Shown: positions 1-4,553 of the stretch, one piece after another
Layout of the letters: every line of letters begins with the position of its first letter
Numbering within the stretch: the stretch's first letter is position 1
Virus record (IMG/VR): IMGVR_UViG_2660238462_000004
Direction: 5' to 3' (one strand)
Source: a virus
Taxonomy: Duplodnaviria > Heunggongvirae > Uroviricota > Caudoviricetes
Length of the DNA stretch: 21,318 nucleotides
Made by a program: the position numbers and the translations under genes
The notes under the pieces: model-generated
The model's input: the letters and a program-made list of their open reading frames with translations, nothing else
Databases searched by the model: none
What the model was told of the DNA's origin: nothing

Positions 1-57
1 TCAGCAGAACTGATATAATATCTGACCGTCATTTCTGGCTCTTTCTTTTGTTCTGCT

Positions 58-67
58 NNNNNNNNNN
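58..67. other. Assembly gap (run of 10 N)
   Basis: Literal run of n in the sequence; flanking segments are not demonstrably contiguous. Confidence 0.97.
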
Positions 68-492
68 TCGCGATGAAAATCCGGCATCTCAATCCCCGCC
101 AGATGATAAGCATCCCGGAACAGCGTGTAACAGTCCGTCACCCCGTGTTCAAAGCGCCGCCCGGTGAGATGCGGCACACAGCGGAACTTATGAATCGTCC
201 CCCGGCAGACCAGCCACCACGGCAAATCACTCTGCACCTGCAGCCGCCGGTCGGCCTCACTCAGCCAGGGCAGACCACCGGGGTGGCTGTGGACCAGCGC
301 CACAATCTCACCCTGCATTTCTGCCTGCAGCCAGTCTTCCGGCGACATACGGAAATACGCCTCCGGCTCACCGGAGATATTCACGCAGGGGAAATATCTT
401 TCCCCCTCCGGCGTGCTTACCACGAAGCCGCACGACTCCGCTGGCGCACATCGCCGGGCGTGCGCCAGAATCGCTGATTCTGTCTGTGTCAT
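68..492 (-). CDS. K: Tail assembly protein K, N-terminal fragment (JAMM/MPN domain), truncated by the gap at 58-67
   Basis: Minus-strand translation MTQTESAILAHARRCAPAESCGFVV...IVALVHSHPGG...DFHR matches my recollection of lambda gpK almost residue for residue; the HSHPGG motif is JAMM-like. ATG at 490-492. The 3' end is lost in the N run. Confidence 0.85.
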
Positions 493-497
493 GGGAT

Positions 498-726
498 TTA
501 CTGCGAAAGTTTGTTAATGGAAAGGAAGCCGCCAAAGTTGCCGACGTTATTGCGAAACTTACAGCCACTCAGGCATTTGCTGCATTTATCCTTCGTGATA
601 TCGGACGTTGGCTGGTCATATTCATCCGCGACCGCCGGACCGTGATAACCGCACTCATCGCCGCGATAGGTCCAGGTGCAGGTGTTGGCCAGCATGATAC
701 GTCCCGGAAAAACAGCGCCGTCCGTT
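498..726 (-). CDS. L: Minor tail protein L, C-terminal fragment, truncated by the gap at 727-736
   Basis: Minus-strand translation ...MLANTCTWTYRGDECGYHGPAVADEYDQPTSDITKDKCSKCLSGCKFRNNVGNFGGFLSINKLSQ matches the recalled C-terminus of lambda gpL (Cys-rich tail). Stop at 498-500, 5 nt upstream of the K start, as in a lambda L-K junction. Confidence 0.85.
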
Positions 727-736
727 NNNNNNNNNN
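727..736. other. Assembly gap (run of 10 N)
   Basis: Literal run of n. Confidence 0.97.
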
Positions 737-851
737 ACTGGCGGTTGATCCGAACGGTCAGCTTTTATCCCGCTATGAGTCTGGAGCGTGGAAAGTGATT
801 TCTCAGTCTGATTTTGCCCGAGATGTCGCAGCCCTTTTCCAGCGCCTCGGT

Positions 852-861
852 NNNNNNNNNN
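852..861. other. Assembly gap (run of 10 N)
   Basis: Literal run of n. Confidence 0.97.
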
Positions 862-977
862 TCATTCATCGTATTCTGCGCACCATTCTGTTGCCCCTTC
901 CGTGCTGACAAGCGCCAGCGGCAGGCCGCGATGGTCGCAGTGGTACAGGTGGATTTTTCGCGCCGGCGTGTACACCN

Positions 978-987
978 NNNNNNNNNA
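978..987. other. Assembly gap (run of 10 N)
   Basis: Literal run of n. Confidence 0.97.
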
Positions 988-1107
988 GATTTCTGCCCCT
1001 GCCCGGTCGCAGTCCAGTCTGCATCTTCATCATCGAGATAGCTGTCGTCATAGGACTCAGCGGTCAGTTCGCCGGGCGTCAGGTCTTTAACTTTTGCCAG
1101 ACGCGAC
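988..1107 (-). CDS. V: Internal fragment of a second, lambda-type major tail protein V (paralog of the intact V at 16424-17167)
   Basis: Reverse-complement translation [40 protein letters not shown] matches recalled lambda gpV. The intact V in this window reads [38 protein letters not shown] at the same position, so this is a distinct allele bounded by gaps on both sides. Confidence 0.65.
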
Positions 1108-1117
1108 NNNNNNNNNN
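1108..1117. other. Assembly gap (run of 10 N)
   Basis: Literal run of n. Confidence 0.97.
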
Positions 1118-1345
1118 CGTTGATTTAACCCTTACAAAGCAATCAGGGACTGGTAATCGTTTTGTTTTACAGAACTCAGGTAATGCAGAACTACCGTTTT
1201 CTGTCAGGGTGTGGGGTTCCAGTACTCGACAAAACGTTTTTGAGGTTGGAACGTCTGCTGCGTATCTGTTTTATGCGCAAAAACGTCAGCAGGCCAGTTG
1301 TTTGATGTAAATGGCGCTATTAATTGCACAATGCTGAATCAGTCA

Positions 1346-1642
1346 TCAGACCGCGACCTTAAAGACGATATTCTCGTTATCAGCGACGCGACGAAAGCNN
1401 NNNNNNNNTATATAAACGTTTGCCTTACGCGTGGTCGCTTGAGCCAGTACCGGCAGCTGATCTTCTTTTTCAGTAATCAGCCCGGCGAGTTCTGTGGCTG
1501 TTTCCTGTTGTTCCAGATACTCAGCCCGGAGAGCTTTCATCTCCGGCGTTACGATGCCGCCGCTCTGGTTAAGCAGTTCCCTGAACTGCGCCCGATTGTC
1601 TTTGCTGGCCTGCTCAGTTTCGGTCTGATGCTGGCGCAGAGC
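1346..1642 (-). CDS. Fragment(s) of an unidentified protein, interrupted by the gap at 1399-1408
   Basis: Minus-strand frame reads ...FRELLNQSGGIVTPEMKALRAEYLEQQETATELAGLITEKEDQLPVLAQATTRKANVYI, then after the gap FRRVADNENIVFKVAV and a stop. Protein-like composition but not recognised; continuity across the gap is not guaranteed. Confidence 0.3.
   Translation of the reverse strand, partial: ALRQHQTETEQASKDNRAQFRELLNQSGGIVTPEMKALRAEYLEQQETATELAGLITEKEDQLPVLAQATTRKANVYIXXXXFRRVADNENIVFKVAV
1399..1408. other. Assembly gap (run of 10 N)
   Basis: Literal run of n. Confidence 0.97.
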
Positions 1643-1652
1643 NNNNNNNNNN
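1643..1652. other. Assembly gap (run of 10 N)
   Basis: Literal run of n; the Q reading frame is open right up to this gap. Confidence 0.97.
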
Positions 1653-1653
1653 C

Positions 1654-1953
1654 GCCGGTTTTAAGGGATTAATTACTTCAAAAGTAAAATCTCGCCCGCA
1701 ATGTTGTGACGATGACGCGATGATCATTTGCGGGTGCATGGCCCGTCTGAAAAAGAACAACAGCGATTTGCACGATTTATTAGTAGATTATTATGTAGTC
1801 GGTATGACATTCATGTCACTGGCAGGTAAGCATTGCTGCTCTGATGGTTATATCGGGAAAAGGTTACAGAAGGCTGAGGGCATAATTGAAGGGATGTTAA
1901 TGGCATTAGATATCCGGTTAGAGATGGATATCGTTGTTAATAACTCTAATTAA
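1654..1953 (+). CDS. quuD: Late-gene antiterminator Q (QuuD/YbcQ-like), 3' portion only; 5' end lost in the gap
   Basis: Frame is open from the gap edge: [99 protein letters not shown], stop TAA 1951-1953. Matches my recollection of the C-terminal ~100 aa of E. coli prophage QuuD. Position upstream of the lysis cassette fits. Confidence 0.65.
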
Positions 1954-1980
1954 TACGCCAATTATTTACTAAAAGTTATT

Positions 1981-2010
1981 AAAAATGGGGCGTTGAGACG
2001 CCCCCAAAAA
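1981..2010 (-). terminator. GC stem-loop with flanking T/A runs; likely intrinsic terminator for the porin transcript
   Basis: ggggcg(1987-1992)-ttgaga-cgcccc(1999-2004); on the minus strand the stem is followed by attttt; on the plus strand by A-rich sequence. Confidence 0.45.
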
Positions 2011-2141
2011 TAAAGGGTAATATATAACAGAAGGTTTATATAGTTAGAAGCAAGGTTGTGCTCCTAAAGGAAGTGGCTTGAGGGAGCCACTTATATGTTG
2101 GGGAGGCAAAGCCTCCCGCAACATATCTTTTAGTAATCAAA

Positions 2142-3224
2142 TTAGAACTGGTAAACCATACCTACAGCAACGATATCATCGGTAGCAACGCCAGATGCTT
2201 TCGTGAAATCGCTCTTATCAATCAGGTTGATTTTGTAATCAACAAAAGTGGACATATTTTTGTTGAAGTAATAGGTTGCACCTACATCAATATATTCAAC
2301 CAAGTCCTGATCACCCCACGCACCCAAGTCTTTTCCTTTAGATTGCAGGTAAGCAACGGACGGACGCAGACCGAAGTCGAACTGATATTGTGCAACTACT
2401 TCGAAGTTTTGTGCTTTGTTGGCAATATGGTTATTACCAAAAACAGTCATGTTCTGGGTTTCAGAATAGGTGGTAGCCAGATAGATGTTGTTCGCATCAT
2501 ATTTCAGACCAGCTGCCCATACTTCAGCATTTTGACCAGATGCATTCAGGCTGTTGTTACCGTAGATAACCTGATTATTAGTGCGGTCAGATTTAGCATA
2601 GGTTGCACCTACACCGAATCCTTCATACTCATAAGTAGTGGAGAAACCGAAACCATCACCATTAGCTTCAGTTACGTCAGTGCGGTCATTTTTACCCTGA
2701 TACTGAGCAGCAAAGTTCAGACCATCAACCAGACCAAAGAAGTCATTGTTACGATAAGTTGCAACACCTGTGGTGCGACCAGTCATGAATACATCTGTTT
2801 GGGTCCAGGTATCGCCACCGAATTCTGGCAGAACGTCGGTCCATGCACCAATATCGTATGCTACACCGTAGTTACGGCCATAATCGATGGAGCCGTAGTC
2901 ACCGAATTTCAGGCCAGCGAAGGCAAGACGGGTTTTATCTTTGGAGGAACCTTGAGATTCAGCGCGGTTGCCTTTGAATTCATATTCCCACTGACCGAAA
3001 CCAGTCAGTTGATCGTTGATTTGGGTTTCACCTTTGAAGCCAAGACGGGCATAAGTAGTATCACCATCATCTGCATCATTAGAGGAGAAGTAGTGCTTAG
3101 CATTAACTTTCCCGTACAGATCCAGCTTGTTACTGTCTTTATTATAAATTTCAGCTGCCTGAGCAGACATCGCCATCAGTACTGATGCAGCTACAGCAGA
3201 AATTGCCACTGTTAATTTTTTCAT
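2142..3224 (-). CDS. nmpC: Outer-membrane general porin, OmpC/OmpF family (NmpC/OmpD-like prophage porin)
   Basis: 360 aa from ATG at 3222-3224: signal peptide [23 protein letters not shown], then [23 protein letters not shown]..., C-terminal ...VAVGMVYQF (terminal Phe typical of beta-barrel OMPs). The six-frame ORF extends 20 codons further upstream but the signal peptide fixes the start. Confidence 0.9.
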
Positions 3225-3592
3225 CGTGAGCCCTTTTTTTGAACTATTATTAAAAAATGATGTCACTGCGCGATAAATATTCATCTAATCAATGTGATTA
3301 TTTCAAGATGTAAGTTTTGGTTTCTCATTTGATTTGTGAAGTAGATCTCTATTTTTATCTGAACTTTTTCTATCGAATCCTATTCATGGCTCTTGGCTGA
3401 ATAAAAATAAATCTATTAGCCAATTTATATTAATGGCTGTTATTTATAAGTGCTCTATAATTTGAAGATTCAATTTAAACCAGCTAAAAATAACGCTGGA
3501 AATTATTTGTTGGTTATTTGTTGAGATTTGCTTATGTATTTGTAGTGGTGTTTTCAATACTCGGTAGCATTCTCGCAAATATCATTTAGTGG

Positions 3593-3620
3593 TTTACGTA
3601 CGTAAAAAATTGGTTATGCT
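3593..3620 (+). promoter_or_regulatory. Candidate late promoter (pR'-like) upstream of the lysis genes
   Basis: -35-like tttacg (3593-3598), 16-nt spacer, -10-like tatgct (3615-3620), inside a 590-bp AT-rich leader. Loosely resembles the lambda pR' arrangement (shared aaaattgg spacer motif). Inference only. Confidence 0.25.
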
Positions 3621-3653
3621 GTTAAGAGTGGTTACTTCGTCACACAGCTTAAA

Positions 3654-3682
3654 CCCGCCGTCGAGCGGATTTTTCCATTTTT
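3654..3682 (+). terminator. Candidate tR'-like terminator or pause hairpin
   Basis: Short GC stem ccgc/gcgg (3655-3668) with 6-nt loop followed by atttttccatttttt. Stem is only 4 bp, so weak. Confidence 0.3.
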
Positions 3683-3811
3683 TGAGTCTCGATATTAGCT
3701 GATAACCCAATACCTGAGTTATTCACTGACTCCGAGTCTGTTACGTTTCTGCTTTTTTGCGATACGTTGTATTCCCTCAATTTACACCCGCTTTGTCTGC
3801 GAGGTGGGGTT

Positions 3812-4027
3812 ATGAAATCCATGGATAAGTTAACAACGGGTGTCGCCTATGGCACCTCAGCAGGTAGTGCCGGGTACTGGTTTTTACAGTTGCTCGATAA
3901 AGTCACGCCCTCACAGTGGGCGGCAATAGGTGTGCTGGGTAGTCTGGTGTTTGGCCTGCTGACGTATCTGACAAATCTTTATTTCAAGATTAAAGAAGAC
4001 AAGCGTAAGGCTGCACGGGGAGAGTAA
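3812..4027 (+). CDS. essD: Class II holin (phage 21 S21-type pinholin) with dual-start motif
   Basis: 71 aa [71 protein letters not shown]; two predicted TM segments; Met1 and Met4 give the antiholin/holin dual start; SD gaggtgggg at 3801-3809. The track ORF begins at an upstream TTG (3767) that I discount. Confidence 0.85.
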
Positions 4028-4031
4028 TTCA

Positions 4032-4553
4032 ATGACTCAAAACTATGAACTGATTGTGAAAGGGATCCGCAATTTTGAGAATAAAGTTACGGTAACTTTA
4101 GCGTTACGGGACAAAAACCGCTTTGACGGTGAAATTTTTGACCTGGACATCTCGCTGGACCGTGTTGAAGGTGCCGCGCTGGAGTTTTATGAGGCAGCAG
4201 CCAGAAGGAGCATCAGACAGGTCTTCCTGGATGTTGCTGCCGGGTTATGTGAAGGGGATGAGCAGTCGCCGGAAAAGCGCCCCATAATTTTAGAGGCGCA
4301 GAATGTGTGGATAACCTACAAAGGAAAGCTACCGGGAAGAATTACTGGTTCTCTGAAGACGCCACCGACGGCATTGCGGTCAGAAAAAGATGATATTGAA
4401 TCGCCCATTGAAAAACTGGAGGGCAGCGTCGCTGATCTGAATAAAAAATTGTCGGTGCTGATTCCTTCTGAAGATGAAAAAAAACGCCGCGATGAGCAGT
4501 TTGCGGCGTTTTACGATTATTGCATTGAAGTTACTCTCGCAGGAATTTTGTGA
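4032..4553 (+). CDS. Hypothetical protein, N-terminal part YdfR/DUF1327-like, with a C-terminal extension
   Basis: ATG 4 nt after the holin stop; MTQNYELIVKGIRNFENKVTVTLALRDKNRFDGEIFDLDISLDRVEGAALEFYEAAARRSIRQVFL... resembles my recollection of prophage YdfR (about 100 aa), which sits between holin and endolysin in Qin. Here the frame runs to 173 aa with a Lys/Glu-rich tail. Confidence 0.5.
   Translation: MTQNYELIVKGIRNFENKVTVTLALRDKNRFDGEIFDLDISLDRVEGAALEFYEAAARRSIRQVFLDVAAGLCEGDEQSPEKRPIILEAQNVWITYKGKLPGRITGSLKTPPTALRSEKDDIESPIEKLEGSVADLNKKLSVLIPSEDEKKRRDEQFAAFYDYCIEVTLAGIL

Follow-up and report, generated by a model that had tools for sequence, protein, structure and literature searches.

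The virus record IMGVR_UViG_2660238462_000004 of IMG/VR (Caudoviricetes; 21,318 nucleotides, the whole of which is referred to here as the window) contains a spacer of 188 bp, at positions 1954-2141, which separates two convergent genes, that of an antiterminator Q on the plus strand and that of a porin on the minus strand. An original prediction placed three stem-loops in this spacer and proposed that they could be porin terminators, elements of the qut/pR'/tR' late control region that lambdoid phages carry after Q, or both, which raised the question whether late transcription has to read antisense through the porin gene. Our analysis indicates that the spacer is very probably the 3' untranslated region (3' UTR) and intrinsic terminator of a prophage porin gene of the nmpC/lc type, which has been published as the IpeX locus of DLP12 and PA-2, and that it is part of a porin cassette lying between a QuuD-type Q and its late promoter. 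The element itself is already known as the IpeX 3' UTR and terminator; what is added here is a map that places the porin cassette between Q and a pR' module conserved across genera, together with a predicted base-pairing of IpeX with ompC and ompF.

Genetic organization of the Q-porin locus

The features of the locus are listed in Table 1. The Q gene lacks its 5' third, lost to a run of N (1643-1652), and mapping against the cassette-free locus showed that its last ~8 codons (from ~1930) already consist of porin-cassette sequence. The porin gene is intact in the window, whereas nmpC of Escherichia coli K-12 is split by IS5; an equivalent porin coding sequence of 1083 bp is annotated in RefSeq. 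Compared with the spacer between quuD and nmpC in DLP12, a cryptic prophage of K-12, the sequence is ~97% identical and differs by six substitutions or indels, none of them in the antisense core described below, and it is 96% identical to the PA-2 lc record J02580 and to phage 434B, a viable phage which acquired its Q-porin block from K-12. Of 5,426 complete E. coli genomes 2,510 carry the spacer, as do 36 phage records, and it is annotated in none of them.

In their passages on IpeX, reviews describe a 167-nt RNA from the 3' UTR of the porin transcript in DLP12 and PA-2, which lowers OmpC and OmpF, this repression being the reported multicopy phenotype of the IpeX fragment (PMC12197685; PMC5069750; PMC10690425; PMC3617542), and one of these passages states that IpeX requires processing out of a longer precursor. 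In the window 167 nt (2141-1975) separate the porin stop from the end of the hairpin 1 tail, which equals the published length of IpeX, and the spacer sits between the stop of an nmpC/lc-type porin (2142) and the sole minus-strand terminator (2004-1987 plus the U-tract). The original assignment of the minus strand to the 3' end of the porin gene is borne out by this arrangement of stop codon and downstream hairpin. It should be noted that the production of IpeX from the porin 3' UTR and the lowering of OmpC and OmpF are derived from the literature, and that the computation presented here covers the identity with K-12 and PA-2, the stability of the hairpins, the strand specificity of the terminators, the position of the pR' module and the complementarities.

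Table 1. Positions of genes, hairpins and control elements of the Q-porin locus in the window.
Feature	Coordinates	Strand	Evidence or remark
3' two-thirds of quuD-type antiterminator Q gene	1654..1953	+	translation matches QuuD
U-tract of porin/IpeX intrinsic terminator, AUUUUUAAU	1978..1986	-	terminator scan; tail score T = 4.0
Hairpin 1, 7-bp GC-rich stem GGGGCGT/ACGCCCC, 4-nt loop	1987-1993/1998-2004	-	porin/IpeX terminator, IpeX 3' end
Weakly structured 3'-UTR core, antisense to host porin mRNAs (predicted)	2005..2046	-	alignment, duplex energy
Hairpin 4, 9 bp, missed in the original prediction	2044..2068	-	-9.2 kcal/mol on minus strand, -5.9 on plus
Hairpin 2, perfect 8-bp stem AAGTGGCT/AGCCACTT	2071-2078/2085-2092	both	internal 3'-UTR structure, terminator on neither strand
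Hairpin 3, extended, 15 bp, bulged G at 2118	2093..2126	both	begins 15 nt past porin stop
Hairpin 3, inner stem, 7 bp GGGAGGC/GCCTCCC	2101-2107/2111-2117	both	
Short T-run CTTTTAG (K-12 CTTTTTC) past extended hairpin 3	2127..2133	+	
Porin gene, nmpC/lc (OmpD-like) family, intact, convergent with Q	2142..3224	-	Pfam Porin_1, E 3e-153
Late-control module of QuuD-type Q	3593..3675	+	exact motif match 3593-3630; alignment with 16 other loci, seven genera
-35 TTTACG, inside palindrome TTTACGTACGTAAA	3593-3598	+	
-10 TATGCT	3615-3620	+	
Inferred transcription start (A)	3627	+	homologous to Sakai pR' start
Inverted repeat GTGG..TCAC	3628-3644	+	
Hairpin and T-run	3655-3668, 3670-3674	+	pR'-proximal hairpin
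Phage-21-type holin (essD homologue), first late gene	3812..4027	+	Pfam PF04971, E 2e-35

Hairpins and terminators of the spacer

The three predicted hairpins were found exactly in place when the sequence was checked, and they are more stable than shuffled sequences. Hairpin 1 (ggggcg/cgcccc, 1987-2004) lies where it had been placed, but its stem counts 7 bp rather than 6, since a T-A closing pair adds one; the perfect 8-bp inverted repeat of hairpin 2 (2071-2092) is as described; and hairpin 3 (gggaggc/gcctccc, 2101-2117) is present but forms only the inner part of a 15-bp stem (2093-2126). Two structures had been missed, namely a weak A/U hairpin (2021-2042) and hairpin 4, which owes its greater stability on the minus strand to a G.U pair. 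Calculated RNA energies on the plus and minus strand were -13.3 and -13.9 kcal/mol for hairpin 1 (z -3.9 and -3.6 against shuffles), -13.5 and -10.9 kcal/mol for hairpin 2 (z -4.9 and -6.2), and -22.2 kcal/mol on either strand for extended hairpin 3 (z -6.5 and -7.2). Values of about -11 to -22 kcal/mol, beyond those of the shuffles, are not the weak folding that would have spoken against stable hairpins. When the whole interval was folded, none of 200 dinucleotide shuffles reached its stability (z -8.9 for the minus and -6.4 for the plus strand). The hairpin structures are real and not a product of chance.

Comparison of 44 sequence variants showed substitutions in loops and bulge rather than in stems: in hairpin 1 variable positions made up 4/4 of the loop and 2/14 of the stem, and in hairpin 3, where the loop varies and the bulge varies or is lost, 3/4 of loop plus bulge and 7/30 of the stem. 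This is the pattern that would be expected for hairpins under selection. Hairpin 2 is cut to 6 bp in one variant class, and RNAalifold run on 25 variants retained hairpins 1, 3 and 4. One-sided substitutions that stay G.U in the minus sense were found five times at one pair and eight times at another, and the hairpin 4 pair 2049-2063 alternates between G.U and A-U in the same sense. The wobble evidence taken together is mixed, hairpins 3 and 4 favouring the minus strand and hairpin 2 the plus strand, the latter signal coming from four singleton contigs which resemble low-quality sequence; the G.U-preserving changes at the two pairs nevertheless lean towards the porin (minus) strand.

Terminator strength was scored with the formula of d'Aubenton-Carafa using ViennaRNA energies, so that the d-scores given here are approximate. 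Hairpin 1 scored +22.9 on the minus and -47.6 on the plus strand, hairpin 2 about -27 on the minus and about -28 on the plus strand, and extended hairpin 3 -41.7 on the minus strand and +7.7, just above the threshold, on the plus strand (+13.8 in K-12). The run of A on the plus strand and of T on the minus strand noted earlier for hairpin 1 is confirmed, in that AAAAAT precedes the hairpin on the plus strand and AUUUUUAAU consequently follows it on the minus strand. With 7 bp, 6 of them G-C, and this tail, hairpin 1 on the minus strand has the make-up of an intrinsic terminator, and it is also the single terminator returned by a pattern scan of the spacer; hairpin 1 on the plus strand, hairpin 2 on either strand and hairpin 3 on the minus strand (d -27 to -48) do not qualify. 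The proposal that the structures terminate porin transcription therefore holds for hairpin 1 and fails for hairpins 2 and 3, which no U-tract follows on the minus strand. Extended hairpin 3, overlooked by the pattern scan owing to its bulge, owes its positive plus-strand score to a stem followed by CUUUU(U), and together with this tract it is a possible weak plus-strand terminator for transcripts leaving Q. This is at most the sole plus-strand role that survives for the interval.

Complementarity to host porin mRNAs

Plus-strand positions 2008-2040 nearly reproduce, in sense orientation, the leader of E. coli ompC as far as 3 nt ahead of its AUG (window, AAATAAAGGGTAATATATAACAGAAGGTTTATA; ompC leader, AAATAAAGG----CATATAACAGAGGGTTAATA), and IpeX, as the minus-strand RNA, is therefore antisense to that leader. 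The score of the local alignment, 32, lies far outside the range of shuffled sequences (z 6.1, with 0 of 1000 mononucleotide shuffles as good; z 5.3, with 0 of 500 dinucleotide shuffles as good). In the predicted duplex, which has an energy of -26.7 kcal/mol, positions 2008-2016 and 2022-2036 pair with ompC -32 to -1, Shine-Dalgarno included, by 9 + 15 + 3 = 27 pairs, of which 15 are contiguous and one is G.U; the 5' end of MicC paired with ompC by the same method gave -26.5 kcal/mol at an overlapping site. An overlapping 14-mer (2014-2027) matches the Shine-Dalgarno-to-AUG region of ompF at 13 of 14 positions (z 2.3-2.5), and the ompA leader had no match to the core (z -1.1). This specificity, strong for ompC, weaker for ompF and lacking for ompA, would fit the published target range. 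The anti-Shine-Dalgarno loop ACCUUCUG and the stretch UUACCCUUUAUUUUU are ~90% unpaired in the predicted fold of IpeX, and this accessible stretch is found just upstream of the terminator. As predicted, the core thus combines the properties of a MicC/MicF-like RNA, that is to say extended complementarity to a translation-initiation region of which part is accessible. These results were obtained with local windows and sequence alignment in place of full-length RNAduplex, as the latter was uninformative for IpeX against the ompC and ompF leaders and gave a likewise non-significant result for the MicF-ompF control. An exact 15-mer seed search of viral contigs returned only the same spacer and chance matches in unrelated coding sequence.

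We propose, tentatively and at somewhat less than an even chance, that IpeX is an antisense regulator of the MicC/MicF type residing within a phage porin 3' UTR, whose stretch 5'-AACCUUCUGUUAUAUAUUACCCUUUAUUU-3' (minus strand, 2008-2036) would occlude the ribosome-binding site of ompC and, by a shorter match, that of ompF. In this scheme the porin transcript would continue beyond its stop codon, and its 3' UTR would fold into extended hairpin 3, hairpin 2 and hairpin 4, leave a weakly paired stretch of ~40 nt exposed and end at hairpin 1 and its U-tract. The exposed stretch could then pair with the two host mRNAs at their ribosome-binding regions, by 27 pairs for ompC and 13 of 14 for ompF, in the manner of MicC and MicF, while the upstream hairpins 2 to 4 and the terminator may serve as stabilising or processing scaffolds. 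Extended hairpin 3 with its CUUUU tract may in addition keep transcripts leaving Q out of the porin gene, at most modestly. If the proposal is correct, a lysogen would swap the porins of its host for that of the phage by direct RNA pairing. IpeX is said to be Hfq-independent in its action on ompC and Hfq-dependent in its action on ompF, which a long duplex with ompC and a short one with ompF would explain.

A number of results weigh against the assignment to the IpeX locus or against the pairing proposed for it. An Rfam scan of 1653-4100 at E <= 1 returned zero matches, ipeX is without annotation in the RefSeq entry of K-12, and the supplements of K-12 3'-end mapping hold zero entries for ipeX, quuD and nmpC, although the missing entry is expected because nmpC is silent and IS5-disrupted in that strain. 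The covariation term of RNAalifold was negligible (-0.19) among variants of at least 89% identity, a diversity too low for covariation to decide the functional strand, and the candidate plus-strand terminator is weak, with only 4-5 U after a C. In a sample biased by the exact-match search conservation of the antisense core did not significantly exceed that of the remaining spacer (variable sites 4/24 versus 56/164, p = 0.10). Finally, the review passages on IpeX state that it has no complementarity to ompC and ompF, or does not rely on complementarity only (PMC12197685; PMC5069750; PMC10690425; PMC3617542); the match was either overlooked, or tested and found dispensable, or it lies outside the minimal active fragment.

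An alternative in keeping with these last statements is that IpeX acts without base-pairing and through its stacked hairpins, which might titrate an RNA-binding protein or a ribonuclease, the ompC-like stretch being a relic of the origin of the cassette. The reviews, as far as their passages on IpeX go, report an effect on ompC without pairing, the hairpins are unusually stable and conserved, and the core does not stand out from its surroundings in conservation. We nonetheless consider this explanation rather unlikely, as it leaves unaccounted for a 27-pair duplex over the Shine-Dalgarno sequence of ompC with an energy equal to that of MicC-ompC, a similarity to ompC far beyond shuffles (z 5.3-6.1), a second match that falls on the Shine-Dalgarno-to-AUG region of ompF with none on ompA, and a seed that lies in an accessible loop just before the terminator, which is the usual layout of small RNAs (sRNAs) derived from 3' UTRs. 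Less probable still, and in our opinion improbable, is that the hairpins are a two-way transcription insulator without any RNA regulation, in which hairpin 1 stops porin transcripts and extended hairpin 3 those from Q. The convergence of the two genes and the opposite strand specificity of the two d-scores are what an insulator would show; hairpins 2 and 4 and the spacing of 167 nt between stop and terminator have no place in it, the multicopy phenotype which the reviews report for the fragment is left unexplained, and the plus-strand terminator is a weak one that polymerase modified by N would ignore.

Pairing of IpeX with ompC and ompF, as predicted here, would turn the 20-year-old statement of "no complementarity, mechanism unknown" into a testable base-pairing model. 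For annotation, a spacer that recurs in nearly half of the complete E. coli genomes should be labelled as porin 3' UTR/IpeX and terminator, and not as a late promoter region.

The late-control module of Q

In phage lambda and most of its relatives pR' directly follows Q. The Q protein of the window belongs to the Q21 family (Pfam PF06530; full-length homologue with E 3.5e-53; naming of the family from PMC9388147), is only distantly related to the solved structure of 21Q, and is 78-81% identical to the Q of Shiga toxin (Stx) phages. A Q of the phage 82 type had first been assumed and was dropped after the Pfam assignment to the Q21 family. A scan for QuuD with one genome per species yielded 30 loci from Escherichia/Shigella, Citrobacter, Trabulsiella, Pantoea, Xenorhabdus, Providencia and Morganella. 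Nearly all of them carry, ~0-40 nt past the Q stop, a conserved module composed of TTTACG(TA/AT)CGTAAAA, nine bases, TAT..T, G(T/A)TAAGAGTG, an inverted repeat, CAGCTTA, a GC hairpin and a T-run, which is also present in Stx phages. Differential RNA sequencing of O157 Sakai has placed the pR' start 258 nt upstream of the mapped 3' end of tR' (PMC7547250), a distance by which the start falls on the A of TAAGAGTG.

Within 1954-2141 the module is unmatched even when 3 mismatches are allowed. It is intact between the 5' end of the porin gene and the holin gene, which begins 185 nt downstream of the inferred pR' start. Its distance from the Q stop is 1639-1659 nt in 80 IMG/VR loci (with identical Q) and in K-12, PA-2 and 434B, and 2856 nt in cases of IS5 insertion. 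A plus-strand scan for sigma-70 promoters found none in the spacer, the best hand-read candidate having a spacing of 19 nt, and the features of the phage 82 pR' (AAA start, extended -10-like element, GCC at +15-17; PMC5001585) were likewise not found there. The Q-binding element of phage 21, direct repeats of TGAGCA 8 bp apart and upstream of the -10 (PMC6606751), was not detected in or around the spacer when up to 3 mismatches were tolerated, and the count of TGAGCA repeats over the whole window was below chance.

Alignment with the cassette-free E. coli/Shigella locus put the junctions of the cassette at ~1930, within the last Q codons, and at ~3590. The cassette of ~1.66 kb comprises the tail of Q, the 3' UTR, the porin gene and the region of its promoter, and it is inserted between a QuuD-type Q and its own pR'. 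Because the cassette lies between the two, late transcription would start at ~3627, beyond the 5' end of the porin gene, and run away from it. Late transcripts would then not need to cross the porin gene antisense, and the qut/pR'/tR' elements that had been looked for after Q map to 3593-3675, the interval 1954-2141 appearing to carry no plus-strand late promoter or qut. That the interval nevertheless holds a Q-dependent late promoter, a pause or qut site and tR', with late transcripts crossing the porin antisense, is extremely improbable: its position right after Q is the usual one of a lambda-type pR', the module directly follows Q in cassette-free relatives, extended hairpin 3 with its T-run resembles a modest plus-strand terminator and TTGAGA-19 nt-TAATAT (1993-2023) is a poor promoter-like match, but the promoter scan of the spacer is empty, the module of this Q clade is missing from the spacer and intact at 3593-3675, it bears the mapped pR' start in Sakai, the spacer moves with the porin cassette between its two junctions, and neither 21Q-type nor 82-type elements were found.

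The mapping of the cassette shows that late control can remain undisturbed where a lysogenic-conversion cassette separates Q from its pR'/qut site, and the comparison of loci provides a conserved cross-genus pR' signature for antiterminators of the QuuD/Q933 type, including an invariant palindrome over the -35. This palindrome, TTTACG(TA/AT)CGTAAA (3593-3606), does not vary across the seven genera and is a candidate Q-binding element for QuuD/Q933-type antiterminators, one unlike the direct repeats bound by 21Q. The inverted repeat past the pR' start co-varies between genera (GTGG..CCAC, GTGA..TCAC, GTGAC..GTCAG) and could be a hairpin of the nascent RNA or a DNA site in the pause or loading region.

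Further variation was seen around the module. The pR'-proximal hairpin of the window (3655-3674) carries a G-to-A change at 3669 with respect to K-12 (GCGGA versus GCGGG), which weakens it from -9.7 to -6.2 kcal/mol and lowers its terminator score from +2.2 to -16.5; the lysis genes of this prophage might receive more basal read-through. In the Stx2 phage Sp5 of Sakai a strong hairpin followed by seven T is located ~26-41 nt past the pR' start (L122 771-786), while the end of the StxS precursor lies 258 nt downstream of that start (PMC7547250); this first terminator is either leaky or part of the Q-loading region. Phage 1H12 (2879-3034) and one further locus encode a Q of 85-87% identity with a different DNA-binding helix. 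Past the stop of the 1H12-type Q there is a plus-strand terminator at ~100 nt and then a lipocalin (Blc) gene on the opposite strand, and the conserved pR' module was not found within the flanks examined of the two loci. This sub-type of Q probably uses a different late promoter.

Other features of the window and of related loci

Beyond the porin gene the order is holin, a DUF1327 gene, endolysin and an Rz-like gene; the DUF1327 gene (173 aa, 4032-4553) splits the usual holin-endolysin pair. The first 1.65 kb of the window (1-1652) are a mosaic in which short phage-like segments, unrelated to one another, are connected by stretches of ten N, at 58-67, 727-736, 852-861, 978-987, 1108-1117, 1399-1408 and 1643-1652. 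Two E. coli genomes show the locus in different states of decay: in SCU-176 the porin gene and its 3' UTR persist beside ybcM, with a 3' remnant only of Q, and in JB2 ISKpn26 replaces the porin gene and the spacer beyond nucleotide 64, hairpin 1 being retained. The PA-2 'ORF1' and a hypothetical protein of 434B (L006 3142; L007 180) start at an ATG within hairpin 3 and run antisense into the porin gene. In the window the same frame (2095-2133) ends after 12 codons owing to one T fewer, and both annotations are artefacts.

Relation to known systems

Lambdoid phages possess pR'-qut-tR' units with leader RNAs, such as the 6S RNA of lambda and StxS (PMC7547250). The window has one such unit, at 3593-3675, which differs from the usual arrangement in being set apart from Q, by 1.64 kb, through the porin cassette and in lying outside 1954-2141.

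The spacer itself corresponds to IpeX of DLP12 and PA-2 (Castillo-Keller et al., 2006, as cited in reviews) in place, in sequence (~97%) and in its length of 167 nt. It differs from the K-12 locus in that the porin gene is intact and not an IS5-split nmpC, and from IpeX as described in that the literature reports no target complementarity, whereas an extended complementarity was computed here.

Among the antisense RNAs of E. coli porins, MicC has a predicted 5'-end site in the ompC leader which the site of IpeX (-32 to -1) overlaps, and the two computed energies match. The core contains UUAUAUAUUACC, in agreement at 11 of 12 positions with the MicF segment UUAUUUAUUACC, which we take to be the part that pairs with ompF. 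Over its length IpeX is not detectably homologous to MicC (z 2.8) or MicF (z 1.2), and its own pairing is a predicted one. According to a review, micC is linked to ompN and micF to ompC. The core of IpeX is, as in these two cases, genetically linked to a porin gene different from those it would target; unlike MicC and MicF it lies within the 3' UTR of a porin mRNA and has no divergent promoter of its own. The base-pairing model would thus join IpeX to the MicF/MicC scheme, in which every porin gene is accompanied by a linked antisense RNA directed against a competing porin.

sRNAs processed from the 3' UTRs of mRNAs, such as CpxQ, DapZ, SroC and MicL, have an accessible seed just upstream of the intrinsic terminator of their mRNA. 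The same layout is found for the core of IpeX, where it is known from sequence and predicted fold.

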